Shown: positions 6,598-58,958 of the stretch, piece after piece
How the letters are laid out: each line of letters begins with the position of its first letter
Numbering within the stretch: position 1 is the first letter of the stretch
Source: Candidatus Aenigmatarchaeota archaeon
Lineage (GTDB): Archaea > Aenigmatarchaeota > Aenigmatarchaeia > GW2011-AR5
Direction: 5' to 3'
Length of the DNA stretch: 64,000 nt
Assembly (NCBI GenBank): GCA_016198685.1
Contig: JACQID010000004.1
Coordinates: 224,001-288,000, forward strand
The notes under the pieces: generated by a model
The model's database searches: none
Seen by the model: only the letters and a program-made list of their open reading frames with translations
What the model was told of the DNA's origin: nothing
Program-made: the position numbers and the translations under genes

Positions 6598-7791
6598 TTA
6601 TCTGCTGGTCACTATTTCGACAACATCGCCGGATTTCAATGCATGTTCCTTTCCTACTACCATTCTTGTCTTGACGTCTATGGCGCGGATGAAGGCCTTG
6701 CCTATATCCGTGTGTATTTTGTATGCAAAATCAAGCGCTGTAGATTTTGGCGGAAGAAGGAAGCAGTCGGGAAGAACATTGCCCTCCCTGTCCTGAAGCT
6801 TGTTGAGTCCGCCGGGGAATATATACATATATTGCAGCATCCCGAACACGGCTTCATTAAGCACGTCCTGAACTCCTGTCGTTCCGTATTTCTCAAGAAC
6901 GTTCTTTCTTATGAATTCAAGTGCCGCTTTCTGCTTTTCATTCATAGATTCGGGCTTCCTTAGGACAAAGTCATTTTCACCTGGTATGTAATTTATCATC
7001 TCAAGCCTGTGCGCTTCTCTCAAGGCCAGCTCAGACTCCGCCGAGCATGGTATTATTTTTAGGTGCGGGAACTGTTCCTTCAGCCTTAGAAGATTTTTTT
7101 CAGCGTCTCCCTTGTCCATCTTGTTCGCGGCAATTATCATGGGCTTTGTCTTCTTTCTAAGATAGCTGGAAAGCGCAAGCATCTGTTCGTCAGTCCATAA
7201 CGACACGTTTTCGGTGTCAAGCCTCAGTGCGGTGACGGCTTCGTTCATAAGCTCTTCCTTGACGCTGAATGCCGACATTTGCTCTGCAAGCTCTTTTGCA
7301 ATCTCCTTTTCGCCGTGCTGTAATGTGCGGGAAAACTTGGCCCAACCCTTCTTGAGTATGCCAAGATACCAGTAGTCGAGTTCTTCTTCAAGAAATTTCA
7401 CGTCTTCCGCAGGATCATAGCGTTGCGTGCGCTCGCCTTTCTCGTTTGTTGTGCCGGAAGCATCTATGACATGTATGAGAACATCAGCCTGGTTCAAGTC
7501 ATTAAGGAACTGGTTGCCCATGCCTTTGCCTTCGTGCGCGCCTGGAACAAGGCCGGCAACGTCTATCATGTCTATAGGCACAAACCGCGTGCCGCTTATG
7601 CAGTATCCGTAGCGCGGATTGCACTTGACGTTGAAATGTTTTTCAGCGCATGTGACTTTGACAAAGCCAACGCTGTGATTGGGTTCGATCGTTGCGAAAG
7701 GATAATCCGCTATTTTAACTTCGGCAAGAGTAGATGCCTTGAAGAAAGTGCTCTTCCCTACGTTTGGCTTTCCTACAACCCCGACTAACAT
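6598..7791 (-). CDS. ychF: Archaeal YchF/Obg-family translation-associated NTPase with TGS domain
   Basis: [31 protein letters not shown] and a C-terminal HTDIG TGS domain. Confidence 0.93.
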
Positions 7792-7840
7792 GACTACAGA
7801 CTCTTTGGATATTTTAAATAGGTTGTATGCGCAGGATTTT

Positions 7841-8341
7841 TCAGATATTATCCAGTTCCGCCATATTTTTTATGATATCACTGAAAGCAGAAGGCGGTTC
7901 CTTGATAGAAGGAAGGATATTAAAATAATACGCAAGTTCTGTGACGGCATTGGGATTCTTGGAGGGGGATAGTATTCCGAAATGGCCTTCTTCATCCAAT
8001 ATCGCCAGCCTTTCATCCTTGTTATTATATACAATCCTAAGGGTCATGTTCCCGTTTTCCGTGTAAATGCCGACTTCGGTTATTTCATAATTCGGCGGAA
8101 GCTGGCGCCATGCTTTGCCTATATCAGTGCCATTGTGGCGCTTATCTAAAAACAGCATATACCACGGATCCCTGTGAAGTTCATCGATATTGCCATCTGC
8201 GGGAACATAGAGCCCGCAGGCATGCGGCACGTAATTGTGGCTTTTTGCTATACGATAAGCCGTGGGACTCATGCCGGCCTTTGCCATTTCTGTTAAAACT
8301 CGGCTTTTATTATTGTCCAAATCCTCGACCAATTTTAGCAT
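7841..8341 (-). CDS. Hypothetical protein
   Basis: 166-aa ORF co-directional with its neighbours; no recognised motif. Confidence 0.55.
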   Translation of the reverse strand: MLKLVEDLDNNKSRVLTEMAKAGMSPTAYRIAKSHNYVPHACGLYVPADGNIDELHRDPWYMLFLDKRHNGTDIGKAWRQLPPNYEITEVGIYTENGNMTLRIVYNNKDERLAILDEEGHFGILSPSKNPNAVTELAYYFNILPSIKEPPSAFSDIIKNMAELDNI

Positions 8342-8374
8342 TTATCATTATGCCTGCTGAATATAATAAAGCTT

Positions 8375-11005
8375 TTATCTTATTTTTTCTAAGCCTAAAA
8401 AGTAATCCACGATCGCCTTCTTGTTTGCATGGAGCCATTTGGCAGAGCGTTTGAGACGTTCAAATGCCCTGTCCGTTACTGCCTTGTATTTTACGGGATG
8501 CGATGCAAAGAAATCCCGGAGATGCTGTTCTTGTGTCACATGGGCATTGATGAAATATTCTATTATGTTAAGAAACACGGGGCCGGATTTGCTGTATTTT
8601 TCTATAGAAGCCCAATTTTTCTCCATCCATGCAATAAGTATTGTTCTTGAAGACGGATTCGCGGCAAGGGATGCAAATACCGCAGGCAAGTCCTGAATTC
8701 GTGCCTTTCCAGAAACTGAAAAATCCAACAATTTATTCAAGAGTTTCGGATCTGTAAACTGGCCCATCGCAAGCAGTGCGTTTGATCTTTCTTCCGGATT
8801 CCGGGTTTCTTGGCATATATGCATCATGGCATTATGCCTCTGTTCGCCGCCGGCTAGAGCCGCTGCATACATGGCAGGATAGCGAAGGTCCGGGGGAATT
8901 GACGAAATACTGGCCGCATTCCTGTCGAACATTTCAACTGCTTTCTTCATTGTGCCTTCATCTTTGACAAAAATCAGGTATCGTATTGCAAGTTCGCGCA
9001 TTAAAGCATCTTCTTGCGGCTCGTTTCTTCGTGCGTTCCATGTAAGTTTCTCCAAATTTCTTCTGTAAGGCTCCATATAGTGCTTGGAGAATCCGTGCCA
9101 TGCCTTTTTCCATTCAGGTTCTTCTGAAAAGACCGAATGTATGCTGCGCATGTTGGCAGATATGCTTCCGAGTATCAGGTATGTATCTTCATTTCCGTAT
9201 GATCCCAAGATTTCAAGGTATTCCTTCAACGGCATCATGCCGTTAAGCGAGAGCCTGAAAATATCATCTTGTAAACCCCAGCGGTCTAGCGGATCTAATT
9301 GCTTGTTTTGGACAAGCATCATCATCTTGGCAGAGTTTTCCTTGTCATAGCTGACCCTGTAAAATCCTGTTTGGCCGTAGTTGGCTTTGAACCATCCTGC
9401 GCTGTCGAGATTCATTTCTACGGTTTTGTTGCTTATCATATGCCTTACTGGAGCTTTCAGCCCCTCTGCCATGACTATAAGCGGTATCTTCCATGTCGTT
9501 GCGCCGTCCTTGCCGCCGAATACAAAACGTTTCTGCATGACGTGGAGCTTGCCTCTTTTCATCGATGCCTCAACCATCGGGTAGCCTGCCTGCTTTATCC
9601 AGCTTATTACGATATCCTTGGCCGGTTTCTCCGAGACTGCCGCAAGCGAGTCCCAGAGATCCTCTGAAGATGCATTGCCGTATTTATGGGCCTCAAGATA
9701 TCTGCTGACCCCTATTCTGAATGCATCATGCCCCAAATAATCCTCTATCATCCTCAGTATGTTGCCGCCTTTGGCATAACTTATTGCATCAAAAAGCTGT
9801 TCGATTTCGTGAACATTCTTTACATTCGCTTCTATAGGATGAGTTGTCTTGAGAGAATCATCGTCCAGTGCCCTCACAGTTTCAAGCCTGAGAAAATCTT
9901 CCCACATGTTCCATTCGGGGAACATATGATCGACTGCCTTGTATGCCATGAAAGTGGCAAAGCTCTCGTTAAGCCACAGATCATTCCACCATTTCATGGT
10001 CACAAGATCTCCTGACCACTGATGCCAGAGCTCGTGCGCAACTATCATGGCTATGAATTTCTTGGTTGATGTCGAAGTTTTCTTTTCATCGTACAGAAGG
10101 TATATTTCCCTGAATGTGACAGCGCCCCAATTCTCCATTGCACCGCTGGAGAAATCCGGCAATGCTATCATGTCGAGTTTCGGAAGAGGATACGGAATGC
10201 TGGAATATTTCTCAAAGTATAAAAGAGCTTTTTTGGCAACATCAAGCGCAAACTTAGCTCCACCTTTCTTGTTGCCTACTGTCGCAACACGTATTAGGGT
10301 GTTATCAGCCCTGGTTTCTTCGAAGTCAAACTCCCCGATACCAAGATAAAGAAGGTATGTGGACATTACCGGCGTTTTTTGGAACAAAATTATCTTCTTT
10401 TCGTTTTCAAGCGTCTCCTTTTTTGCAGGCATATTGGATATACCCGTGAACTTTTTTCCCATCTTCAGCGTCACATCAAAACTTGCCTTATAATTTGGCT
10501 CGTCAAAGCAGGGGAACGCGCGTCTCGCATAAGGCGCCTCAAAATGCGTTGTCGCAGCGTATCTTAATGATCCATCCGGCATCACTACCTTGGTTCTGTA
10601 GAATCCGACCAGGCTATCGTTTAATTTTCCCCTGAATTCCAGCAGGATTTCGGCTTTGCCTCTTATTTTTTCAGGCAATTTAAGAATCAATATCTGGTTT
10701 TCCGGCTGCATTTCAACGCGTGCAGGAAGTATTTTGTTGTTCACTAATATGGCGGCTGTTGTTATTTTCAGATCCAGCGCATTAAGAATTATGGCTTTTG
10801 CGGGAGCAGATATGTCTATTGCTATTCTCTCCTTTCCGGAAAAGGAGAAATTTTCCATATCAACGTCAAAGATCATATCGTAATTGGACGGTTGAACAGT
10901 ATCCGGAAGCCTGTGCATTATTTTAGGCATTCTATGATATTGTTCTTTTGAGCATAAGAATGCAGGAATTACGAGACTCCTGTGCCAGTCTTCGCAATCA
11001 TGCAA
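8375..11005 (-). CDS. pepN: M1 aminopeptidase with ERAP1-like C-terminal domain (real start probably 10930)
   Basis: GAMENWG, HELWH..(18)..E, YAKGG. Confidence 0.94.
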   Translation of the reverse strand: MHDCEDWHRSLVIPAFLCSKEQYHRMPKIMHRLPDTVQPSNYDMIFDVDMENFSFSGKERIAIDISAPAKAIILNALDLKITTAAILVNNKILPARVEMQPENQILILKLPEKIRGKAEILLEFRGKLNDSLVGFYRTKVVMPDGSLRYAATTHFEAPYARRAFPCFDEPNYKASFDVTLKMGKKFTGISNMPAKKETLENEKKIILFQKTPVMSTYLLYLGIGEFDFEETRADNTLIRVATVGNKKGGAKFALDVAKKALLYFEKYSSIPYPLPKLDMIALPDFSSGAMENWGAVTFREIYLLYDEKKTSTSTKKFIAMIVAHELWHQWSGDLVTMKWWNDLWLNESFATFMAYKAVDHMFPEWNMWEDFLRLETVRALDDDSLKTTHPIEANVKNVHEIEQLFDAISYAKGGNILRMIEDYLGHDAFRIGVSRYLEAHKYGNASSEDLWDSLAAVSEKPAKDIVISWIKQAGYPMVEASMKRGKLHVMQKRFVFGGKDGATTWKIPLIVMAEGLKAPVRHMISNKTVEMNLDSAGWFKANYGQTGFYRVSYDKENSAKMMMLVQNKQLDPLDRWGLQDDIFRLSLNGMMPLKEYLEILGSYGNEDTYLILGSISANMRSIHSVFSEEPEWKKAWHGFSKHYMEPYRRNLEKLTWNARRNEPQEDALMRELAIRYLIFVKDEGTMKKAVEMFDRNAASISSIPPDLRYPAMYAAALAGGEQRHNAMMHICQETRNPEERSNALLAMGQFTDPKLLNKLLDFSVSGKARIQDLPAVFASLAANPSSRTILIAWMEKNWASIEKYSKSGPVFLNIIEYFINAHVTQEQHLRDFFASHPVKYKAVTDRAFERLKRSAKWLHANKKAIVDYFLGLEKIR

Positions 11006-11035
11006 TATTAGAGGTTTAACGCCATTATAATTACC

Positions 11036-11671
11036 ATGAAGATAGGAATTCTAGGTTCCGGCGTTGTTGGCCAAACACTGGGAATCGGGCTTATGGGCCA
11101 AGGGCATGAAGTTACTATAGGAACTAGAGACTCTGGAAAACTGAACGAATGGCTTTTGAAAGCCGGCAGTAAAGCTTCTGTAGGTTCATTTTACGATGCG
11201 GCAAAGTTCGGGGAAGTTATATTCATAGCTACAGTATGGACAGGCACCGAAAATGCCATTAATCTTGCAGGGAAAGAAAACTTTGCAGGTAAGATAGTCG
11301 TAGACGTCACTAATCCTCTGGATTTTTCAAAAGGCACTCCTGCCCCTGCAGTCTCTTATCCTCTTTCGGCATCCGAACAAATACAGAACTGGCTTCCGGC
11401 CGCAAAGGTTGTTAAAGCATTCAACATAGTGCCTGCGCATGTTCAGGTAACCCCGAAATCCCTGGGCGATGCCGATCTTTTCATTGCAGGAAACCACAAA
11501 GACGCCAAGGAATTTGTGCGTGAAACCGCAAAACGCTGGGGCTGGTCAGATGTCATAGACATGGGCGACATCAAAGCTGCATATTGGGTAGAGATGCTCG
11601 GCTTGGCAGTAATAAATTACGGCTTCAAGCACAACGATTGGAATTTCGCACTGAAGCTCTTGAGGAAATGA
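11036..11671 (+). CDS. F420-dependent NADP oxidoreductase family protein
   Basis: KIGILGSGVVG, IGTRD, VVDVTNP, VVKAFN and GD motifs. Confidence 0.85.
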   Translation: MKIGILGSGVVGQTLGIGLMGQGHEVTIGTRDSGKLNEWLLKAGSKASVGSFYDAAKFGEVIFIATVWTGTENAINLAGKENFAGKIVVDVTNPLDFSKGTPAPAVSYPLSASEQIQNWLPAAKVVKAFNIVPAHVQVTPKSLGDADLFIAGNHKDAKEFVRETAKRWGWSDVIDMGDIKAAYWVEMLGLAVINYGFKHNDWNFALKLLRK

Positions 11672-11681
11672 TATGATTCTA

Positions 11682-14249
11682 TTATCTTTCCGGAATTAAA
11701 TGAAGAAGATTCAGGCGCCTAAATTCTTGATATAACTCATTATCACTTTTTCTCAACTCGCGTCTGGTTGCATTAGTGTGGTTCATAAGAAGCCGCAAAA
11801 GTAAATCTTCCACTACAGCCTTGGGCTCATAAAGTGTCATATTCCTTGGCATTGTTATGGTGATATATTCATTTCCATCGATAGTTGTTGCAGGTAGGCT
11901 CTCTAGAATCGTTTTCATATTTGTTCTTAAGTTAGTAAAAAGATAACGGGACACAGTATCCTGCAGGTCATCTAATCCGCTTTCGTGCTGGAAAGCGAAT
12001 TGCGTGCAGATCTCATGATTTGTTTGGCCATCTATGGATGCATCGGGCTTTCTTTTGCCCCTTTTTGATTCCATCACATTTCTATCTACGTTAAATTCGA
12101 AGTATTCTTTAGGTATTTCAAGGACCGGGTCGGTATATTTTCTAGAGGTGATTACGTAGACAGAGAATTTGCTGTCCTTAGGCTCTGTAGCCATTACCTT
12201 TCCTGACAGTTCCGGTATCACTTCAAATCCCGCAAGTTTCATTCCGGCGTATAACTTGTCTAAATCGAGGTCAAGGTAAGCCGGAAGCGCTTGTATATTG
12301 AATGCACGTTTTCTTGATACGCGATTCTGCTCCTTTATCGACATCTCCCTTTCCCTTATTATGCGTCCGGTCATGTCCGTTCTTTCCAGTTCCGTATGGT
12401 TCAAACCCAGAGAGCACAAAACAAGATCGAACTCGTCATTTGTAAAGGGAAGTGCATGCAAATAGCCCTTGTGATATTCATTATCAGGATGGGCGCCCAT
12501 GATTTTTGCCTTTTCAAAATTGGCAATATTTATGTCAAGACTTACCGTAGGTATTCCCATCGCCATTGAGAGGATGGCGGGTCCGGAGGGGGCATCAAGT
12601 ATTCTTGATATCTTCTCGCCGCTTCCTTGCAAGCCTTCAATTATTCTCTTGTATACTTGTGCAGTTTTTCCAGAGTAAGACATAGGCCAATTATGCATAT
12701 AATAATCTGCAAAATCCGAGGCTGTCCTGCCGTCATTAGCATAGATCAACCTTTCGTTGGATTCAGCGCTTCTACCGGCCATCACAGTCAATATCCTTCT
12801 TACGTGCTGGGCGGGCGTATAAATCACGTCAAGTATAGGTCGTTTTGTATGAACGGGCGAATCTGACACCAGTTTGCCGTCCTCAAGCTTTACCCTTCCG
12901 CCCCTCATGGCAATATCTATAATTCTCTTCTTATCTGACACAAGATGATTTATGCCTGCATCGATGGAGCCTCTGGGATGCATAGGGTAATTGACAACGA
13001 GTTGCGTGATGCGTACCGGCTTTTCCTGACCTCTTCTGTCTATCCTTTTTGTCATTTGATATAGCGGGCCATAACTATATGGAAGATCGAGAAGGAATTC
13101 CTGCGATGCTGCAACCAGTGGAAGCGACTCGCCCATGGTATGCGGATTCGATATCAAGACACAATGCTCCGGGGAATTTTCAAAAAGATGCCTCACAATC
13201 TCGCGTTCGCTTTCTTTGCCCATCCGACCAGTCGGTACGCTGCCGTCTATCCTTAGCGCCTTGTGCTTCTTGTAACGTTCTTCGAGTTTCCGTGTGACAC
13301 CGTTCACAAATCTTGAAGAAAATACAACGCATTTTTCCCCATTTGCTATCGCGTTGCCTACAAGGCGGTCAAGCTCAAGGTATTTCGATGATTCTATATC
13401 GTTTAATTTTTCGCGTAGTACCGGATCTGTTATCATGTCTGGCTCTACAAGAGACGGGTCCAGCGAAGCCTTCCTAAGTTGGTCAAGCTTTTCGGTAGGT
13501 GATATGTCTTCATAGGCAAGAACTGCAGCATAGACTGCTGCATGATCTGGATTCATTTCCACAAAGCAGGTGCTTATCTCAGGTAATTCGACATCACCTC
13601 TCCTCAGCATTTTCCTGTTCAGGACGCTTCCGAGAACAAGAGGATTTTTTTGATATGCTCTTGCCACATGCCATGGCGTTGGGTAATTTTCAGGCTCAAG
13701 CATGCTTATGAGGTTGAACATATCGGACATGCCGTCCGGCACAGGAGTTGCGGTAAGCAGTGCAAGATATTTCGCCCTGTCCGTTAACCTTCTCATATTA
13801 TACCGGTGCGTCTTGGGGTCTCCTGTATGATGCTCCTCATCAACAATAACATAGTCGGGCTTGAAGTTTTCAAGCGCCTGAGTTACTTTATCCCGCGTAG
13901 TCTTGACGCCAAAAACGTCATGATTGACTATGATGGCATCCGAGTCCAAAACGACCCTATCAAGAGATCGTGTGCCATAGTCATTCAGAAGCGTGGTCCT
14001 TAGCCGAGGATAATTGGTGCCCAGTTGTGACTTCCAGTATTCAAGGCCAGAATTTGGCACTACAGCTAGAGTCTTAGGCATACGGCCCGTGCCTATCTCA
14101 ATGAGCCTGATAGCGCCTATGGCTTGCTGTGTCTTCCCAAAGCCGCCGCCGTCTGCTATGAGTATTCTGCCTTCATCATATATCTTGAAAGAGCCGTACT
14201 CCTGCTGTATATTGGGCCTTATGACCGAGACTTCCCTGTAAGTTGTCAT
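11682..14249 (-). CDS. SNF2-type helicase/ATPase fused to a class I SAM-methyltransferase-like domain
   Basis: ILIADGGGFGKT, VVPNS..W, VIVDEEHH, LLTATP, KCVVFS, QMTKRIDRRGQ; then RILDAPSGP, SLDIN, HALPF.NDEFDLVLCSLGL. Confidence 0.85.
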   Translation of the reverse strand: MTTYREVSVIRPNIQQEYGSFKIYDEGRILIADGGGFGKTQQAIGAIRLIEIGTGRMPKTLAVVPNSGLEYWKSQLGTNYPRLRTTLLNDYGTRSLDRVVLDSDAIIVNHDVFGVKTTRDKVTQALENFKPDYVIVDEEHHTGDPKTHRYNMRRLTDRAKYLALLTATPVPDGMSDMFNLISMLEPENYPTPWHVARAYQKNPLVLGSVLNRKMLRRGDVELPEISTCFVEMNPDHAAVYAAVLAYEDISPTEKLDQLRKASLDPSLVEPDMITDPVLREKLNDIESSKYLELDRLVGNAIANGEKCVVFSSRFVNGVTRKLEERYKKHKALRIDGSVPTGRMGKESEREIVRHLFENSPEHCVLISNPHTMGESLPLVAASQEFLLDLPYSYGPLYQMTKRIDRRGQEKPVRITQLVVNYPMHPRGSIDAGINHLVSDKKRIIDIAMRGGRVKLEDGKLVSDSPVHTKRPILDVIYTPAQHVRRILTVMAGRSAESNERLIYANDGRTASDFADYYMHNWPMSYSGKTAQVYKRIIEGLQGSGEKISRILDAPSGPAILSMAMGIPTVSLDINIANFEKAKIMGAHPDNEYHKGYLHALPFTNDEFDLVLCSLGLNHTELERTDMTGRIIREREMSIKEQNRVSRKRAFNIQALPAYLDLDLDKLYAGMKLAGFEVIPELSGKVMATEPKDSKFSVYVITSRKYTDPVLEIPKEYFEFNVDRNVMESKRGKRKPDASIDGQTNHEICTQFAFQHESGLDDLQDTVSRYLFTNLRTNMKTILESLPATTIDGNEYITITMPRNMTLYEPKAVVEDLLLRLLMNHTNATRRELRKSDNELYQEFRRLNLLHLIPER

Positions 14250-15943
14250 GCCATAGCCTCCTTTTCAGGCATTAATTTCCTGGCTTTCCTTGTGAGCGTT
14301 AAGAATCTCTGGAATTCGTCATAAAGGGTTCCGTGAAGCCATTTCAAGGGTTCGTTACCTTCTGCGATAGCTTTTTCCTTTATCAAGCCGAGCAGGGTTT
14401 CTTCATCCTCATGCGAGGGATATTCATCATTTCGGAGCAGAGACATGTAATAATCCCTTCCTATCTTGAGGAAGCCTTCGCGGAGCATCTTATCGTTGTT
14501 TATTATTGGCATAGGTATGCTCCCTATAACGTCGCCGCCAAAGCCGGACAGGTCCGGTCTTTTGAATCTGCCTATGTAAGGACCCAATGAGGGCAGATAT
14601 TCATATGCCACCTCTTCGTCGACTATGCCAGGATAATAAAGGGCCAGAATCCTCGCGGCAAGCATGTCTATCATGCCACCTGCTGTGCTTCCATGGTAGA
14701 ATAATGACACAACCCTTTGCGCATCTTCATGCGTCTCGACAAACTCCCTGAAGGATGGGGCGTCGTTAATTTTAACGACGGAATTTATACCTCTGCCATT
14801 ATCAAAATTAAAGTTATGCGCTTCTGCTGGTGTCATCGGTGTTATTCCAGCTCTTAATAACCAACGTCTTGCACGAGTATTCTTAATTCCTAAGTATTTT
14901 CCAAGATAATTCGCACTTCTGTAACCAGGATTTTGCTCAACAAGCTTCGCCAAATCCCCATCTGCAATCATTTTGACACCGGTTCTTATTTCATGAGACA
15001 ATAACAAAGCTTCTTGTTGTGTCATCGGTGTTATTCCAGCTCTTAATAACATGCCTTTGGCGCCTGTAGGACTAATTCCCAAATATTTTGCAAGCATACT
15101 TTCACTCGCATATTCAGGGTTTTCTTTAACAATATCTACAAGTTCCTGATCAGTGAGCATTTTTACATCGGGCGAGAAGATAATATGTCTAGATTCAACT
15201 CTAGACATTGGTTCTATCCCAGCTTTTCTCAAATATCTTGCCGCTGCTCCATTACCAATATTTAAGTATGTACTTAGTATGAGAGCACTTCTATACTTAG
15301 GTTCCCGCTCTACAAGTGCTACTAACTCCTGACTTGTTAAAATTTTTACATTAGAGCCATTATATTTGACTAATTTACCTTCAGACAGATTCATAGGTTG
15401 TATGTTTGCAGCGTTCAAATAGTTTCTTGCAGTGCTAGGGCTTACACCTAAATAGCCAGCTAGAATAGTGGGGCTTCTCATGGCAGGATCGTCCTCAATG
15501 AGTTCTTTTAACGCCTCCTCGCTTGGCTTATTCTTATAATGTCCTCCAAGATGCTGTACCAACTTGGCCTCGCTGATAGTCATTGTTTTTATGCCAGCAA
15601 GCAATAGATATCTTGTTGCGGCAGCAGGACTTACACCCAAATGTTTAGATAAAATACTAGGACTTCTCATGGCAGGATCGTCCTCAATGAGTTCTTTTAA
15701 CGCCTCCTCGCTTGGCTTATTCTTATAAGGTTGTTTAAAATGTTGAACCAATTTTCCTTCAGTAATATTCATTGGCTCTATGCCTGCAGATAACAAATAT
15801 TCTCTAGCAGCACTTCTACTCATATTCAAATATGTTGCAAGTGAAGTGCTGCTTCTATACTCAGGATGGTTTTGTACCAGCATTCGCAACGCTTCATTAC
15901 TAATTCTGGTTTTATAAGATGGCATACTTTCATCCTTAACCAA
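14246..15943 (-). CDS. Protein with six tandem HTH-like repeats + unknown ~175-aa C-terminal domain (start may be ATG 15925)
   Basis: Repeats at aa 14-76, 77-139, 140-201, 202-262, 263-325, 326-388; ATGA overlap with the next gene, with AGGAGG upstream of that ATG. Confidence 0.85.
   Translation of the reverse strand: MVKDESMPSYKTRISNEALRMLVQNHPEYRSSTSLATYLNMSRSAAREYLLSAGIEPMNITEGKLVQHFKQPYKNKPSEEALKELIEDDPAMRSPSILSKHLGVSPAAATRYLLLAGIKTMTISEAKLVQHLGGHYKNKPSEEALKELIEDDPAMRSPTILAGYLGVSPSTARNYLNAANIQPMNLSEGKLVKYNGSNVKILTSQELVALVEREPKYRSALILSTYLNIGNGAAARYLRKAGIEPMSRVESRHIIFSPDVKMLTDQELVDIVKENPEYASESMLAKYLGISPTGAKGMLLRAGITPMTQQEALLLSHEIRTGVKMIADGDLAKLVEQNPGYRSANYLGKYLGIKNTRARRWLLRAGITPMTPAEAHNFNFDNGRGINSVVKINDAPSFREFVETHEDAQRVVSLFYHGSTAGGMIDMLAARILALYYPGIVDEEVAYEYLPSLGPYIGRFKRPDLSGFGGDVIGSIPMPIINNDKMLREGFLKIGRDYYMSLLRNDEYPSHEDEETLLGLIKEKAIAEGNEPLKWLHGTLYDEFQRFLTLTRKARKLMPEKEAMA
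14780..15904 (-). repeat. Intragenic tandem repeat with a 183-189-bp period
   Basis: Identical 66-bp blocks at 15474-15539 and 15663-15728; identical 31-bp blocks starting at 14831 and 15020; both pairs are 189 bp apart. Confidence 0.92.
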
Positions 15944-16121
15944 TTAGGAAGGAAAGTATAAATACTTTACTATTTATAAGTAATAAATATTTAAGTTTCT
16001 AAATATACTAACGAATGGATGTATGAGTTCGTGACTTTCTATATATTGGGAGATACAAATATAGAAAGTATATGTTCTATTTACTATATTAATCACAATA
16101 AAAATGATATCAAAATTTTAA

Positions 16122-16194
16122 AGCCGCCTGAGGGGATCGAACCCCCGACCTGCAGTTTACAAAACTGCCGCTCTACCAGCTGAGCTAAGGCGGC
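16122..16194 (-). tRNA. tRNA-Thr (UGU), no encoded CCA
   Basis: GCCGCCT acceptor, GCAGT-TT TGT AA-ACTGC anticodon arm, GGTTCGATCC T arm. Confidence 0.97.
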
Positions 16195-16226
16195 GCTTTT
16201 AGAAATAAGGAAAGAACTCTTTTAAT

Positions 16227-16646
16227 TCATATGTCCAGAAGCTTCAGGCCGGTTTCTGCGTCATATTTTCTCTCGACCTCGAATGGCAATACTTTCAGAA
16301 ATACTTCGAGCGTGCCTGCGGCAACCATTTCCATGACATGGCCGCCAAAGGCATGAAATTTCTCATCTGCTATCGTGGCATGGGCGTGAATTATCGGCCT
16401 GCCTTCGTGCATCGAAGAATTGCCTATGAGACCGGTAACTTCGAATTCGCCTTTGAACGTCTTGCGATGGTACTGCTTGTCTTTAAGGGAATAGAACGCA
16501 AGCTCCGCTTCCGTCACCGCACCTATTGCATCGAACTTGGAAAATTTTATCTTATTCTCGCCCAAAAAGTTAAGCAGAGTTTCCGCCAGCCTGTCGCCTT
16601 TCTCAAGTTTTATGAGATAAGAGTCCGATTTCTTTATGCACTTCAT
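16227..16646 (-). CDS. PPC/DUF296 domain protein
   Basis: LEKGD.L, AIGAV, FEVTGLIGN, HAHATIAD..GGH; ATGA overlap with mscS. Confidence 0.9.
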   Translation of the reverse strand: MKCIKKSDSYLIKLEKGDRLAETLLNFLGENKIKFSKFDAIGAVTEAELAFYSLKDKQYHRKTFKGEFEVTGLIGNSSMHEGRPIIHAHATIADEKFHAFGGHVMEMVAAGTLEVFLKVLPFEVERKYDAETGLKLLDI

Positions 16647-17731
16647 TTTTTCACACGTTCTTTTGTAAGATGAACAACCTGCGTCGGATACGCAAATTCT
16701 ATGCATTCCTCCTTGAATTTTTGCATGATGCCTATGTTTATTTCCTGTTGTATGTCCATGTAGATGTTGTAGTTTGCAGATTTTATATAATAAACAACTT
16801 CAAATACAAGGCTAAAATCTCCAAATTTCTGGAAATGAGCCCTGTCAATTTCAGCATCATTGATTTTGCGTATTATGTCAAATATCATGACCGGTATCTG
16901 CTGTATTTTTTCCACCGGCGTCTCGTATTTGATGCCAAAATTGAAAACAACCCTCCTCTTCTCCATTCTCTTGTAATTATTGACCCGTGCTTCAGTAAGT
17001 TCCTTGTTTGATATTATCAGTTCCTGACCCTGAAGCGTCTGCATCCTTGTTGATTTTATGCCTATATTCTTCACTACACCCATGTCATTTCCCACTATTA
17101 TAAAATCCCCCTTCTTGAAGGGTCTGTCAAAAAATATCGAAAACGAAGCAAAGACGTCATCAAGGACATTCTGGAGAGCGAATGCCACAGCCACTCCGCC
17201 TATGCCAAGCCCTGCTATGAGCGGTGTTATGTTGAAGCCTAGGTTAATTAGAACAAAGAAAAATCCAAGTATCCAGAGGGATATATTGAAAATCTTTGAC
17301 AATATTTCTATCATTTCTGTATCAGAATCGCCTTCCTGCATGCGTTTAGCTGATATTTTTTGTGCTCCATATTCTATTATTCCGTTGAGTATCACGATAG
17401 TATAATAAGTCCCTATTATTGTAATCCCAGAAAACATCAGCATACGGATTATGTCGGGTATCTTTACAAAGTGTGTGGCAAGATAGAGGGATATGAACAG
17501 ATAAAGCGGGAGACCGATCTTGTCTGCCATGCTAACAATAAGATCATCAAACTGCGTTTTTGTGGACTTAACAATGACTTTGAGTTTCAACAATACCAGA
17601 GCCTTGAACACCTTTAGTAATATGAAGGAAATAAAGAATACTGCAGTTGCTGCAATGTAATCTTGCGCAATATTGCCGGCAAATTGTTGATTGAGGAAAA
17701 ATTCTAATTCCATGTTATAATAAGAGATCAA
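16643..17731 (-). CDS. mscS: Small-conductance mechanosensitive channel
   Basis: AGLGIGGVAVAFALQ, DRPFKKGDFI, IGIKSTR and YVFEVVYY-like C-terminal motifs. Confidence 0.92.
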   Translation of the reverse strand: MISYYNMELEFFLNQQFAGNIAQDYIAATAVFFISFILLKVFKALVLLKLKVIVKSTKTQFDDLIVSMADKIGLPLYLFISLYLATHFVKIPDIIRMLMFSGITIIGTYYTIVILNGIIEYGAQKISAKRMQEGDSDTEMIEILSKIFNISLWILGFFFVLINLGFNITPLIAGLGIGGVAVAFALQNVLDDVFASFSIFFDRPFKKGDFIIVGNDMGVVKNIGIKSTRMQTLQGQELIISNKELTEARVNNYKRMEKRRVVFNFGIKYETPVEKIQQIPVMIFDIIRKINDAEIDRAHFQKFGDFSLVFEVVYYIKSANYNIYMDIQQEINIGIMQKFKEECIEFAYPTQVVHLTKERVKK

Positions 17732-19274: not shown

Positions 19275-21098
19275 TTGCAAGGTAATGTGATGGCTGACAA
19301 GACGCTTAACGATTTTTCATGGAAGGTGGCAGGCGAGGCTGGTCACGGTATACTCAACGCCGGTCTCTCGATGTTTGCGAAGACCTGCCTGCGTTCCGGC
19401 CTTTACGTTTATGCGACTGCCGAATATCCTTCTCTTATACGAGGAGGGCACAACAATCTTGATGTCCGTGTGTCGGACAAACCTATAGAATCACAGAACA
19501 AGCATATAGATATGCTGGTTGCCCTTGACAAGGCATCTGTAGAGAAGCACGCAGGCAAGCTTTCTCAGGGCGGTGCAGTCATCTATGATGGAGAGAAAAT
19601 AACCCTAGACAGGAGCGGGATACGGGACGACGTAAAGCTCTATTCTGTTCCTCTTTCCTTGATTGCAGAGTCTTCCGGCGGTCAGATCATGCGCAATACC
19701 GTTGCCATAGGAGCTGCGATGGCACTGCTCAATTTCGATCTTTCGGTTCTTGAAGGCGTCTTGACGGAGTCTTTCAGGAAAAAAGGTGACGACATCATAC
19801 AAGGCAACATAAAAGCTGCCCGTGACGGCCATGCTTATGTCAAAAAGAACTTTGCCGATGATTTTGGCCACATGCTCAAGGGCCATGGCAAGCACAACAA
19901 GATGTTCCTTTCCGGTCATGATGCTCTTGCAGCAGGGGCAATAAAGGCCGGATGCAAGTTCTATGCAGCTTACCCAATGACTCCGGCATCGTCGCTCCTT
20001 GGCAGCATGGCAGCAAGTGAAGGCAGGTATAACCTTGTAGTCAAGCAAACTGAAGATGAAATAGCCGCAATAAACATGGCCATAGGCGCAGGATATGCAG
20101 GCGTGCGCAGCATGGTAGGCACATCCGGAGGCGGTTTCTCATTGATGGTTGAAGGATTCGGTCTTGCTGCAATGACAGAAACGCCGCTTGTAATTGTGGA
20201 ATCCCAAAGACCCGGCCCTGCAACAGGCATGGCAACGCATACAGGTCAGGCAGACTTAAGATTCATGCTTCATGCATCTACCGACGAATTTGAAAGAGTG
20301 ATCATAGCTCCGGGAGATGTGCAACAATGTTTCTATGAGACGATAAAGGCTTTCAATCTTGCCGACAAATACCAGATGCCAATCGTGATAATGACTGACA
20401 AGTATCTTGGCGAGAGTTATTTCACTGCCGATGAATTTGAGACCAAAGACGTGAAGATAGATCGTGGTAAGATGCTTACTGATTCTGAACTTGCTGGCAT
20501 GACGGAATACAGAAGATACAAAGTCACTGAAGATGCCGTTGCGCCCCGTTCCATACCAGGACAGAAGAACGGCTGCTTTGTTGCGACGAGCTACGAGCAC
20601 GATGAAGCAGGGTTTGAACGCGAAGAAGAGGAAATCAGAGTTACCATGCATAACAAGCGCTTCAGAAAATTTGCCTTGGCATCCAAGGAACTTGTCAACC
20701 CTGGACATTTGGGAGATGCAAATGCTGATATCATGATAATCGGCTGGGGCTCGACAAAGGGTCCTATACTGGAGGCCATGAAACTGCTGAAGGCAAAAGG
20801 CATCAAAGTTGCCTATCAGCAGGTCCTTTATCTTAGCCCATTTCCTGCATCTCTTATAAAAGAAACCATAGCCAAAGCAAAGCGCGTAGTCATAATTGAA
20901 AACAACAAGATGTCCCAACTTAATAGTGTGATAAGAGAGCACTGCCTTGTGAGCGTTGATAACAAGATTTTGCGTTACGATGGCAGACCTTTCTCGCCGC
21001 AGGACATAGAGGATGGTGTGCTGAAGATAGTGAGGAGCACTGCGCCACGCGTGTTGGAATATGCAACTTTCGGCATTGTTAATGAGGTGAAAGCATGA
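19275..21098 (+). CDS. korA: 2-oxoacid:ferredoxin oxidoreductase alpha subunit
   Basis: GEAGHG, YPSLIRGGHN, YPMTPAS, EDEIAA, TSGGGFSL, QRPGPATG. Confidence 0.95.
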   Translation: MQGNVMADKTLNDFSWKVAGEAGHGILNAGLSMFAKTCLRSGLYVYATAEYPSLIRGGHNNLDVRVSDKPIESQNKHIDMLVALDKASVEKHAGKLSQGGAVIYDGEKITLDRSGIRDDVKLYSVPLSLIAESSGGQIMRNTVAIGAAMALLNFDLSVLEGVLTESFRKKGDDIIQGNIKAARDGHAYVKKNFADDFGHMLKGHGKHNKMFLSGHDALAAGAIKAGCKFYAAYPMTPASSLLGSMAASEGRYNLVVKQTEDEIAAINMAIGAGYAGVRSMVGTSGGGFSLMVEGFGLAAMTETPLVIVESQRPGPATGMATHTGQADLRFMLHASTDEFERVIIAPGDVQQCFYETIKAFNLADKYQMPIVIMTDKYLGESYFTADEFETKDVKIDRGKMLTDSELAGMTEYRRYKVTEDAVAPRSIPGQKNGCFVATSYEHDEAGFEREEEEIRVTMHNKRFRKFALASKELVNPGHLGDANADIMIIGWGSTKGPILEAMKLLKAKGIKVAYQQVLYLSPFPASLIKETIAKAKRVVIIENNKMSQLNSVIREHCLVSVDNKILRYDGRPFSPQDIEDGVLKIVRSTAPRVLEYATFGIVNEVKA

Positions 21099-23050
21099 AG
21101 ACTACATTGAAGGAACTAACAACAAAGGAAATGCCTTCATGGTGTCCGGCATGCGTGATGCCTGGAACGCTTATTCATACCAATCCTTCGGCAAAAAAGA
21201 TAGAAGAAATAAAGGAAGGGGACAGGGTGCTCGGCAAGGACGGAAAATACCACGATGTCACCGAAATAATGATTCACATGCACAAAGGCGATGTATTCAG
21301 GATAACCGCCAAGTGCTTCGGGGAGACAGTAATAACAGGGGAGCATCCGGTTCTCATTTCAAAAAGAAAAGCCAAGCCGTACAATAATTCCGTTTTTGAT
21401 CTTGAATGGGCGGAAGCAAAGAACGTACGGGAAGGAGACTATCTCCCGTATCCGATACTCAAAGAGGTCAAGGACACTGGGGAAATAGAGCTTCCGGCAA
21501 AAAGAAAAGAGATGGATAGGAAACATATTGAGATTCCAAAAACCGTAAATATAGGAGCGGACTTTCTGAGACTGGCGGGTTATTATATCGCCGAAGGTTA
21601 CTGCCATAGCAGAGAGGCGTGCCTCACTTTTGGCAGCGCCGAGATGAAATATGCAGAAGATGTAAAGGATATAGTTCAACGATTGTTCGCATTGAAGGCG
21701 GCGATAAAGGCAAAAGGAAGCAAAATAAACGTTGAAATACGTTCTTCGCTCTTGGCAGAGTCCTTCGCGGAATGGTTCGGTCGGGGTGCGCAGAACAAGA
21801 AGATACCGCATTTTATGATGCTTCTACCAGCAGAGAAACAAAAAGAACTCATCAAAGGTATGTGGAGGGGTGACGGGTGGCTGGACAGAAAAGTCAATCG
21901 GGCAAGCTACAAGACCATATCGCCGATTCTAAAGGAACAGATTAAGCAACTCTTGTTAAGGCAGGGAATAGTGCCTACAGTGAGCATAAACAAAGCATAT
22001 GATATTCACAAGGAGTCATATTCAATAGAGGTAGTAAGCTTTGATGACATGGCCAAGTTATGCAACGCATTGGAAATGGTCTTTGAAGCGCGCCGTTCCG
22101 AGTCTCACAAGCCTCCAATACAGAGGGATGAGAATTACGCTTATTTGCCTATAAGACGGATAACAAAGGAGTTTTACGATGGGCCTGTCCATAACATGGA
22201 AGTGGCTGAAGTAAATTCCTACGTAAGCGGCAGTGCAATACTTCACAACTGCGGAGATTTTAACATACTTTTTGCTATAAAGAACGCCCTAACAGAGCTT
22301 GATACCGAGCCTGAGAATATAGTAATTGTGTCAGGGATCGGGTGTGGTTCCAAAACCCCTCACTTCATCAAGACTTACGGATTTGAAGGTCTTCACGGCA
22401 GGGCCGCGCCCGTGGCCACGGGAATCAAATTAGCTAACAAAGGTTTGAAAGTCATAGTTGTCGGCGGAGACGGCGACGGTTATGGAATAGGTGCCGGCCA
22501 TTTACTCCATACGATGAGAAGGAATCTTGACATAACTTATCTTGTTCAGAATAATGCCGTTTACGGCCTTACGAAAGGCCAGTACTCGCCTACGAGCAAG
22601 AAGGGATTCAGGTCGCCTTCAACGCCATCGGGCAGCCTGGAAAATGAAGTTAATCCCATGTTATTTGGTCTTGCAATGGGCGCAACTTACGTTGCAAGAG
22701 GCTATGCTTATGAAGTCAAGCATTTGCAAAAACTGATAGTCGATGGCGTTCGTCATAAAGGTTTCTCCATCATAGACATATTCCAGCCCTGCTCAACATA
22801 TAACAAGATCCAGACTATAGCATGGTACAAGCAGAACCTTGTCAAGATGGAAGACATAGGCCATGATGCAAATGATTTCAATGAAGCCCTGAAAAAAGCG
22901 GCAATGACTGAAAAGCTGCCGATTGGATTGTTCTACAAGACCGAAAAACCCACGTATGAGGATGGCATACCGCAAGTAAGTTCACTGCCTTTAGTGAAGC
23001 ATGATATAAACAATATTGATATAAAACCTTTGCTGGGCAAATTCAAGTGA
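21095..23050 (+). CDS. korB: 2-oxoacid:ferredoxin oxidoreductase beta subunit precursor containing an intein
   Basis: Exteins rejoin as WCPA-CGDF; SGIGC, HGR and GGDGDG..IG..H TPP motifs, NN.VYGLTKGQ.SPT. Confidence 0.95.
   Translation: MKTTLKELTTKEMPSWCPACVMPGTLIHTNPSAKKIEEIKEGDRVLGKDGKYHDVTEIMIHMHKGDVFRITAKCFGETVITGEHPVLISKRKAKPYNNSVFDLEWAEAKNVREGDYLPYPILKEVKDTGEIELPAKRKEMDRKHIEIPKTVNIGADFLRLAGYYIAEGYCHSREACLTFGSAEMKYAEDVKDIVQRLFALKAAIKAKGSKINVEIRSSLLAESFAEWFGRGAQNKKIPHFMMLLPAEKQKELIKGMWRGDGWLDRKVNRASYKTISPILKEQIKQLLLRQGIVPTVSINKAYDIHKESYSIEVVSFDDMAKLCNALEMVFEARRSESHKPPIQRDENYAYLPIRRITKEFYDGPVHNMEVAEVNSYVSGSAILHNCGDFNILFAIKNALTELDTEPENIVIVSGIGCGSKTPHFIKTYGFEGLHGRAAPVATGIKLANKGLKVIVVGGDGDGYGIGAGHLLHTMRRNLDITYLVQNNAVYGLTKGQYSPTSKKGFRSPSTPSGSLENEVNPMLFGLAMGATYVARGYAYEVKHLQKLIVDGVRHKGFSIIDIFQPCSTYNKIQTIAWYKQNLVKMEDIGHDANDFNEALKKAAMTEKLPIGLFYKTEKPTYEDGIPQVSSLPLVKHDINNIDIKPLLGKFK
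21152..22249 (+). mobile_element. 366-aa intein with LAGLIDADG homing endonuclease
   Basis: Starts CVMPGT, block B ITGEHPV, ends SAILHN followed by Cys+1; LAGYYIAEG and IKGMWRGDG motifs. Confidence 0.95.
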
Positions 23051-58848: not shown

Positions 58849-58958
58849 TGCGCCCGCCGGGATTTGAACCCGGATCAACAGCTTTCTTCGTTTTCCGCCG
58901 GCGCTTTTTCTAAAAGGGCCGTTGGAAGGCTGTGGTCCTGCCGTTAGACTACAGGCGC
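58849..58958 (-). tRNA. tRNA-Gly (UCC) with a 39-nt intron at 37/38 (intron 58884-58922)
   Basis: GCGCCTG/CGGGCGC acceptor, ACAGC/GCTGT stem, CT-TCC-A, CCGGG-TTCAAAT-CCCGG; CUUC/GAAG central helix with 3-nt bulges. Confidence 0.92.

Follow-up and report, generated by a model that had tools for sequence, protein, structure and literature searches.

Two overlapping genes downstream of a tRNA-Thr gene

We analysed a stretch of 64,000 nucleotides from a Candidatus Aenigmatarchaeota archaeon (GenBank assembly GCA_016198685.1, contig JACQID010000004.1, positions 224,001 to 288,000), hereafter the window (G000:C6), to which all coordinates refer unless another locus is named; the source genome, G000, amounts to 935 kb in 8 contigs and is 93.7% complete. 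Two genes of the reverse strand are the subject of this work. Gene A (14246-15925) encodes an array-adaptor protein, and gene B (11682-14249) encodes a fusion of an SNF2 ATPase with a class-I methyltransferase (P0002, 855 aa). Together they constitute a single accessory module that is conserved in DPANN archaea.

The genes are co-directional and lie between a tRNA-Thr(UGU) gene (16122-16194, reverse strand), called by both ARAGORN and Rfam, and a convergent gene for an F420-type oxidoreductase. The start codon of gene B (ATG, 14249-14247) overlaps the stop codon of gene A (TGA, 14248-14246), and an AGGAGG is found at 14257-14262, 7 nt upstream of the gene B start; these coupling signals, read from the sequence, span 14246-14262 on the reverse strand. 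A previous sequence-only reading, made by a model, had described the co-directional pair with its ATGA overlap and AGGAGG, its position after the tRNA-Thr gene behind an AT-rich spacer and the convergent housekeeping oxidoreductase; the open reading frames (ORFs), the sequence, ARAGORN, Rfam and PF03807 agree with this description. The longest ORF of gene A (14246-15943, reverse strand) begins with a TTG at 15943 and encodes 565 aa (P0001). Translation probably begins at an ATG further in, at 15925 (residue 7 counted from the TTG), which is aligned with Met1 of the homologue P0016; from this ATG, the protein has 559 aa.

Gene A combines an array of helix-turn-helix modules with an adaptor domain

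Residues 7-381 of P0001 (14801-15925, reverse strand) make up an array of six tandem helix-turn-helix (HTH) modules of 63 aa, delimited by the repeat register, alignment and Pfam HTH matches. We observed that the repeats are in strict register, the anchor A[GN]IxPM being found at residues 53, 116, 179, 241, 302 and 365, and that they share the scaffold L..LV...PEYRS...L..YLG.S..TA.RYL..AGI.PM. The variable positions of the modules fall in what is, judging from the sequence, a putative recognition helix, and the Pfam matches of the array are of HTH type (HTH_11 with 4.4e-11, HTH_10 and HTH_17). Modules 2 and 3, a 189-nt DNA repeat with 75% identity, are a recent duplication.

The repeat-built HTH array had been noticed in the sequence-only reading, which overlooked the conserved domain following it. 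This C-terminal adaptor domain (residues 390-565; 14249-14776, reverse strand), defined by the alignments A2 and A4, is all-alpha and non-repetitive, covers 175 aa and contains the motifs DAPSFxEF, LPSLGPY, GRDYY and KWL..L.DEF. P0001 residues 390-565 match the A2/A4 adaptor profile (1.8e-67 for the match in G000), and the AF2 model of the domain has a predicted local distance difference test (pLDDT) score of 84 and a predicted template modelling (pTM) score of 0.77. When 1.84 billion representatives were searched exhaustively with the profile, only 14 proteins with the adaptor emerged at E up to 1e-3; in 13 of them it is the C-terminus of a protein of 290-750 aa, the exception being P0028, described below.

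We then compared the adaptor with known folds and sequences. No fold relative stood out by Foldseek against the PDB (best E about 1) or by VIA-align wide (best Z 6.4, among generic helical rows); in the Atlas, the shape search gave template modelling (TM) scores of at most 0.42 and the feature search returned nothing outstanding. These fold searches mark the fold neither as new nor as known. The only protein returned by a sequence search of the PDB was an engineered repeat protein (E 0.0018), none of whose aligned stretches passes individually. At the sequence level, the adaptor appears to be a novel domain without detectable relatives.

Gene B fuses an SNF2 motor to a class-I methyltransferase

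The first 470 residues of P0002 (12840-14249, reverse strand) constitute an SNF2 ATPase domain, matched by Pfam SNF2-rel_dom (PF00176; 5.5e-15, 55.7 bits for a cut-off of 24.9, residues 30-251) and by phrog_62 (6.2e-37). It contains the Walker A motif GGGFGKT, the motif II DEEHH and a motif VI with Q398..R402..R405.GQ408; residues G36/G38/K39/T40, D137/E138/H140 and Q398/R402/R405/Q408 are invariant in six members of the family (alignment A1). The best sequence match of the domain in the PDB is the Sulfolobus SNF2 core (1z63, 2e-12).

Residues about 505-715 (12105-12737, reverse strand) form a class-I (Rossmann-fold) S-adenosylmethionine (SAM) methyltransferase domain, recognised by Pfam and Foldseek. 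The Methyltransf_11 profile (PF08241) scores 21.1 bits on P0002 for a cut-off of 21.2, Methyltransf_25 also matches, and Methyltransf_11 is clear in relatives, for instance with 38.4 bits in L041. When we compared the model of the domain with solved structures by Foldseek, class-I enzymes were found with a probability of 1.00, 3l8d, Bud23 and nucleomethylin being at the top with E values of 1e-9 to 1e-8; the SAM-binding fold of the sequence-only reading is thereby recovered, as is its SNF2 motor by the profiles above. The AF2 model of gene B has a pLDDT of 67.7 overall and of 75-90 in the core, and the Atlas structure search with the methyltransferase returned generic class-I methyltransferases with TM scores of 0.65-0.69. 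The motifs W..SYS, LDAPSGPA (motif I), LDIN (motif II) and LPF..D.FDLVLCSLGL are kept across 11 diverse family members; motifs I and II keep their acidic residues (D552 and D/E, respectively), and the Gly loop is atypical.

No DNA-methyltransferase family of Pfam, NCBIfam or PADLOC matches the methyltransferase region at E up to 0.1. The families tested were N6_Mtase, N6_N4_Mtase, MethyltransfD12 and C5 DNA_methylase, and the region belongs to none of them by this measure. One profile annotated as 'DNA methyltransferase', phrog_11801 (6.6e-06), matches residues 22-82 only, inside the SNF2 domain. As for stand-alone relatives of the methyltransferase, we found one protein of 225 aa on a contig of 789 bp, probably a fragment.

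The C-terminal region of gene B (residues 716-855; 11685-12104, reverse strand) is confined to the P0002-P0007 subfamily. Its last ~35 residues (about 11694-11807) resemble one copy of a module type that is arrayed in partner proteins of relatives. This was detected by profile matching: the seven repeats of the L050 ORF 5723-7219 align with the A1 profile at positions 813-848 (E 1.1e-9) and with the A3 profile at positions 349-387 (8.7e-15).

The two genes are paired in relatives and their products are predicted to interact

In a word-indexed search of 5.8 billion proteins, no more than five close homologues were found for gene B, with 84-42% identity, and two for gene A. We observed that an adaptor-bearing gene is directly upstream in all five close gene B homologues whose 5' side is known (L012/L038, L007/L008, L009/L010, the P0006 contig and L011); in the case of P0003, this upstream gene was identified among the ORFs of L038. 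The junction between the two genes overlaps by 4 nt in L012 and L038, by 4 nt in L007 and by 1 nt in L009. In more distant loci the order differs: the SNF2-methyltransferase gene is followed by two array-adaptor genes in L041 and L050 and by one in L052, the array-adaptor gene comes before it in L051, and weaker adaptor matches adjoin SNF2-methyltransferase genes in L069 and L072. The window pair has the arrangement by which we define the family, an adaptor ending an array protein encoded next to an SNF2-methyltransferase gene. In addition, P0028 (894 aa) contains repeats, the adaptor and then an SNF2 ATPase in a single protein, and is therefore a natural fusion. Parts of the module occur fused, split and permuted; the module is conserved, selected and accessory.

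To these data we can add a structural prediction. The model of the complex between SNF2 residues 1-480 and the adaptor has an ipSAE of 0.74, versus 0.00 for the best of three controls; the mark applied to this score is reached in 58 of 80 solved complexes and in 2 of 110 mismatched pairs. At least 88% of contacts are reproduced between runs, with a partner pLDDT of at least 77. The modelled contacts of the adaptor on SNF2 involve residues 9-25, 45-53, 78-81 and 202-212, the last long helix of the adaptor packing on residues 9-25 and 45-53. This geometry is consistent with the P0028 fusion, and both model and fusion support docking of the adaptor on the N-terminal face of the SNF2 domain. The complex model favours binding and is no demonstration of it. 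The idea of a two-component module of reader and remodeller/modifier, put forward from the sequence together with co-occurrence and complex modelling as ways to check it, has thus gained support from the paired occurrence in the five close homologues and in distant loci, from the fusion and from the model.

Several loci show further arrangements. In L054 (G215:C5, 723-5239), which belongs to the same taxonomic family as the source genome, an SNF2 protein of 470 aa, an array protein of 454 aa and a methyltransferase of 365 aa are encoded by separate, slightly overlapping genes, divergent from a glycosylase gene; the C-terminus of this array protein resembles a remote adaptor, by eye only. In L055 (G333:C4, 1278-4073), a glycosylase gene is followed by that of a 777-aa protein with four HNH_repeat modules and a class-I methyltransferase, without SNF2; we detected no homology of this methyltransferase to that of the gene B family. 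In L071 (G012:C2, 1432-8810) and L072 (G243:C1, 4135-10136), distant SNF2-methyltransferase genes are followed by 3-5 co-directional, overlapping ORFs without Pfam matches, one of which shows a weak adaptor match (3e-8), and these may be multi-adaptor loci. No internal repeats were flagged in the neighbouring ORFs of distant loci by blastp self-comparison, a test too insensitive for this to count against their presence.

Module arrays vary between relatives

We compared the arrays of the partner proteins and found at least six module types, in 3-10 copies. The 63-aa PEYRS/AGIxPM HTH type is present in the window, in P0016 and P0017 and in part of P0026. A type of ~75 aa ('F.TKV..V..YLFS'), with HTH_Tnp_1/HTH_28 matches, is present in P0018, P0025, P0029 and P0034, the latter with ten copies. 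PF18780 HNH_repeat modules are found in P0020, P0024 and L069, a sigma-r4-like type in P0023, eight HTH_23-like copies in P0035, a type of ~50 aa akin to the gene B tail in P0032, L050 and L054, and a CENP-B_N-like type in L070; some array proteins combine module types. The closest relative is L038, whose P0003 shares 84% of its residues with gene B; identity there amounts to 89% in the adaptor and 43% in the array, which has five modules versus six in P0001. The arrays change in module type and number around a constant adaptor. The sequence-only reading had overlooked the adaptor, the variation in module type and the glycosylase that recurs as a partner, described next.

A divergent glycosylase is a third component in most relatives

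A divergent AAG-type glycosylase is part of the unit in most relatives, and G000 has a glycosylase-less, two-gene form. A PF02245 (AAG/Mpg) gene adjoins the module in L007, L009, the P0006 contig, L040, L041, L050, L051, L054 and L055, and is near to it, not adjacent, in L073; its position varies, being upstream, downstream or divergent. Of the 371 genomes of the phylum that we scanned, 93 contain a PF02245 match. Scores of canonical copies are about 130-244 bits, and the five lowest matches spanning most of the profile (47-64 bits) are precisely the module-linked ones (G146, G215, G319, G333 and G351). In a tree, eight module-linked glycosylases split from twelve canonical ones with a branch support of 100/100; that of L041 scores 60.8 bits for a Pfam cut-off of 27.

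Seven of the eight module-linked glycosylases contain an ETxAY motif, which in human AAG provides the catalytic Glu and the intercalating Tyr. These proteins are ~30 residues shorter, do not contain the DPASH loop, have lost the pocket Asn of the LN(I/V) motif in four of eight cases and possess a C-terminal motif of their own, NC.G.Y+L. We also noticed that the L041 glycosylase (1124-1768) carries an insertion of ~50 aa resembling an HNH_repeat module, a type also found in partner arrays. In L050 (G319:C19), directly downstream, the ORF 7494-8375 gives a weak match to AP_endonuc_2 (an endonuclease-IV-like TIM barrel; 33.2 bits for a cut-off of 31.1), which may be a link to base excision or a coincidence. 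In L038, no PF02245 gene was found within 5 kb. G000 carries HhH-GPD and endonuclease-IV homologues elsewhere.

Distribution, selection and history

The adaptor is present in 5 of the 371 genomes of the phylum; a further match, in G092, was discarded as a false positive within histidyl-tRNA synthetase. The methyltransferase domain of the gene B family is found in long ORFs of about 14 of these genomes, belonging to several families. Neither gene was found in four genomes of the same genus (70-89% complete). When we compared the window with L038, the rate of synonymous substitution (dS) amounted to 0.51 in the adaptor, 0.52 in SNF2 and 0.73 in the methyltransferase, whereas the genes of the oxidoreductase and the M1 peptidase in the flanks had values of 1.63 and 1.94, respectively; dS of the cassette is therefore about three times lower than that of its flanks. 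This would fit a functional cassette exchanged after the host genes had diverged. The nonsynonymous to synonymous ratio (omega) was 0.11 for the adaptor, 0.3 for the array and 0.126 for gene B.

The downstream neighbours are common to the window and L038, and the upstream side differs: in L038 it holds a ResIII/endonuclease-like gene and a PIN gene, and no tRNA within 5 kb upstream of the cassette. In the window, the 3' end of the tRNA is not repeated within 10900-16400, so that no att site was found, and neither protein nor any flanking gene contains an integrase or nuclease domain. The sequence-only reading had noted this lack of nuclease, integrase and att duplication, which domain scans and the search for a repeat of the tRNA 3' end confirmed; an arrival by integration at the tRNA, suggested by its remark that tRNA 3' ends are integration hotspots, finds no support, given the missing att repeat and the L038 cassette without a tRNA within 5 kb upstream. 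We accordingly rejected the candidate of a tRNA-integrated island, with neither an integrase nor a direct repeat of the tRNA 3' end being present. We also looked for a site without the cassette in four congeners and in one member of the family, which was uninformative: the two flanking genes (11036-11671, F420_oxidored, and 16227-16706, PCC-domain) could not be found in the four same-genus genomes either. The whole neighbourhood may therefore be variable in the genus.

A phage or plasmid origin was also considered and found no support in IMG/VR or in phage records: profiles of SNF2-methyltransferase, methyltransferase and adaptor retrieved no close homologue from IMG/VR, and 50,697 phage records returned only SNF2 helicases with 23-27% identity and no match to the array. 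The only loci with restriction-like, NERD or toxin-antitoxin neighbours were L038, L007 and L009.

Other features of the window

The convergent gene 11036-11671 (forward strand), an F420_oxidored match (PF03807, 2.5e-17), ends 10 nt from the end of gene B, and the wider flanks are of housekeeping type (peptidases M1, M24 and M17, a YchF-type GTPase, the PCC-domain protein and MscS). The AT-rich spacer that separates gene A from the 3' end of tRNA-Thr (15926-16121, reverse strand), 178 nt of which lie between the tRNA gene and the longest gene A ORF, is presumably the promoter region. It contains a perfect 11-bp inverted repeat (16034-16044 and 16059-16069, ACTTTCTATAT / ATATAGAAAGT) with arms 14 nt apart and imperfect palindromes nearby; this repeat could be an operator or the terminator of the tRNA gene. 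Further away, the gene for the beta subunit of a 2-oxoacid:ferredoxin oxidoreductase (21095-23050, forward strand; TPP_enzyme_C, PFO_beta_C) is interrupted by an intein with a LAGLIDADG homing-endonuclease domain. At 58849-58958 (reverse strand), Rfam finds a tRNA of 110 nt (53.9 bits) that ARAGORN does not call, probably an intron-containing tRNA gene.

Proposed function and alternatives

We tentatively propose, giving it a little less than an even chance, that the module carries out array-targeted, motor-assisted purine methylation of DNA, the product being read or excised by the glycosylase where one is present, in a conflict or marking role. The array would tether the complex to DNA, its set of modules giving specificity or avidity. 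Translocation by the SNF2 motor, or distortion of DNA, driven by ATP, would present bases to the fused methyltransferase, which would N-methylate a purine; where the dedicated glycosylase is present, it would act on this product or bind it. Abasic sites would arise on the targeted DNA, or its replication would be blocked, which would serve defence without a nuclease or another genetic conflict. Bud23 and nucleomethylin, among the fold matches of the methyltransferase, are rRNA purine-N methyltransferases. In fungal Dnmt5, an SNF2 ATPase is coupled to DNA methylation in this manner (10.1101/2020.01.05.895227). A bolder form of the proposal, which we find doubtful although conceivable, is a programmable and nuclease-free 'restriction by written damage' in ultra-small archaea, in which interchangeable arrays would aim the motor-methyltransferase and non-canonical N-methylpurines would lead to abasic sites or, without glycosylase as in the window, to a block of replication; the swappable reader might then be re-targeted.

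Several observations weigh against the proposed purine methylation. For all family members, the mechanism is inferred from comparison and models, and the DNA binding ascribed to the array draws on weak HTH-type matches. The substrate of the methyltransferase (DNA, RNA or protein) is the weakest link: motif I is atypical (DAPSGPA) with a Pfam score of P0002 just under the cut-off, the sequence profile, compared with the PDB, matches only generic class-I enzymes of unknown function, and the fold matches to Bud23 and nucleomethylin are not separated from those to many small-molecule methyltransferases. One glycosylase, that of L055, has Ala for the catalytic Glu (ITATDAY), and PF02245 was not found in G000 (93.7% complete; control genomes matched), so that the glycosylase step cannot operate there as proposed. 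Housekeeping neighbours rather than a defence island surround the module in the window, L041, L050, L051 and L039, and codon constraint could be another cause of the low cassette dS.

Those same housekeeping neighbours (window, L039, L041, L050 and L051) would suit a cellular role as an epigenetic or regulatory writer-eraser, in which an array-guided SNF2-methyltransferase marks chromosomal sites and the glycosylase erases or reads the marks. Purifying selection would suit it as well, the one glycosylase without catalytic Glu could be a reader, and eukaryotic analogies are offered by the CDCA7 reader with SNF2 (HELLS/DDM1) and DNMT (PMC10538959) and by Dnmt5 (10.1101/2020.01.05.895227). We nevertheless consider such a role unlikely: the module is rare and patchy, with the adaptor in 5 of 371 genomes and not found in four congeners, the cassette dS is below that of the flanks, and even close relatives differ by complete replacement of the array, an unusual behaviour for a regulator whose targets are fixed. 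If the target were RNA or RNA polymerase, a RapA-like SNF2 would act on transcription complexes with an rRNA-type base methyltransferase and arrays as tethers. RapA is the best NCBIfam match of the SNF2 part (5.8e-11, far under the cut-off), RapA structures are among its PDB matches, the fold neighbours Bud23 and nucleomethylin are rRNA methyltransferases, and there are weak Methyltransf_8 matches. The RapA match covers residues 27-189 only, however, and the N-terminal domains of RapA are absent; the recurrent third component is a DNA glycosylase with a clade of its own, and the partner arrays use DNA-binding module types known from transposases and homing endonucleases, which makes an RNA target improbable.

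The AAG-family partner also brings to mind an aid to alkylation repair, in which SNF2 and the arrays would give the glycosylase access to DNA and the methyltransferase would be non-catalytic, for example a SAM sensor; the atypical motif I and the weak endonuclease-IV-like ORF adjoining the module in L050 point in this direction. This explanation, which we judge quite improbable, must contend with methyltransferase motifs kept under purifying selection in 11 diverse members, with L055 retaining array and methyltransferase and dropping SNF2, with G000 keeping the pair without any AAG, and with separate canonical AAG genes being common in genomes of the phylum; variable sequence-reader arrays are, moreover, unexpected for general repair. 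It is very improbable that the module is a member or remnant of a described system, be it DISARM, BREX, Zorya, Dpd or a phage or plasmid polyvalent methylase-helicase. The SNF2 part does match ZorD (1.4e-13), DrmD, BrxH and DpdE weakly in PADLOC and NCBIfam, and the phrog_62 'DNA helicase' with 6.2e-37, but these matches are limited to the generic SNF2 core and far under the cut-offs, no other component of the named systems is found in the flanks, the methyltransferase is not an N6-adenine or C5 DNA methyltransferase, and neither the 50,697 phage records nor IMG/VR hold a close homologue.

If the proposed purine methylation is true, the module would be a new prokaryotic coupling of sequence reading, ATP-driven DNA handling and base modification, with the first class-I methyltransferase of non-DNA type brought to DNA by an SNF2 motor and the first AAG-type glycosylase dedicated to an enzymatically written base. 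Independently of the mechanism, the comparison yields a novel adaptor domain, a predicted SNF2 docking site and reader arrays that evolve by module swapping, the latter being a natural mix-and-match scaffold for DNA recognition. The data suggest that DPANN genomes of about 0.9 Mb spend about 4.3 kb on an accessory DNA-handling machine, maybe horizontally exchanged, which bears on how DPANN symbionts handle foreign DNA or their hosts.

Comparison with known systems

The multi-component system is real, rare and apparently undescribed. No entry of PADLOC, NCBIfam, PHROGs or Pfam names the pair, and a full-text literature search returned no description of a module with an SNF2-class-I methyltransferase, AAG and an array; with PADLOC matching weakly on the generic SNF2 part only, the statement of the sequence-only reading that no named architecture fits stands. 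Known defence systems were rejected, since DpdE scores 30.2 bits for a cut-off of 500, DrmD 24.3 for 610 (NCBIfam) and ZorD 47.8 bits on the SNF2 core only (PADLOC). None of DrmA/B/C, PglZ/BrxC/PglX, ZorA/B or DpdA/B/C is present among the flanking genes. DISARM (DrmD with DrmMI), BREX (BrxHI/II with PglX), Zorya (ZorD) and Dpd (DpdE) likewise associate an SNF2-type ATPase with DNA modification and are accessory and patchy. Their methyltransferases, however, are of the N6-adenine or C5 type and encoded by separate genes, whereas that of the window is a Methyltransf_11-type domain fused to the motor; they also have neither a module-array protein bearing an adaptor nor an AAG-type glycosylase, and the window pair has no nuclease.

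The best family match of the SNF2 domain is the polyvalent methylase-helicase of phages and conjugative elements (phrog_62, profile positions 700-1149 of 1881). Polyvalent proteins of this kind carry N6-adenine DNA methylases. They are giant, and no viral or plasmid-like context was found for the gene B family. As for the AAG/Mpg family (PF02245), the likeness applies to the third component of relatives and not to the window, and the module-linked clade is set apart and always linked to array and methyltransferase genes.

In eukaryotes, Dnmt5 and CDCA7-HELLS/DDM1-DNMT likewise couple SNF2, by fusion or recruitment, to a DNA methyltransferase, with a separate reader that recruits or activates the motor. 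HELLS and DDM1 are among the PDB sequence matches of the SNF2 domain, at the generic SNF2 level (E 1e-11 to 1e-8). Dnmt5 and the DNMT enzymes, however, are of the C5-cytosine type, their readers are zinc-finger or chromodomain proteins, and no homology was seen beyond the SNF2 core; the likeness is one of logic only.

Small, exchangeable DNA-binding modules are likewise found in the arrays of homing endonucleases and transposases (NUMOD1, PF18780 HNH_repeat, HTH_Tnp_1/HTH_23/HTH_28 and CENP-B_N). The arrays of the module differ in that they contain no endonuclease or transposase domain and that their 3-10 units end in an adaptor for an SNF2 motor. Conceptually, they also resemble the specificity subunits of type I restriction enzymes, in which exchangeable readers are combined with a constant, enzyme-contacting part.

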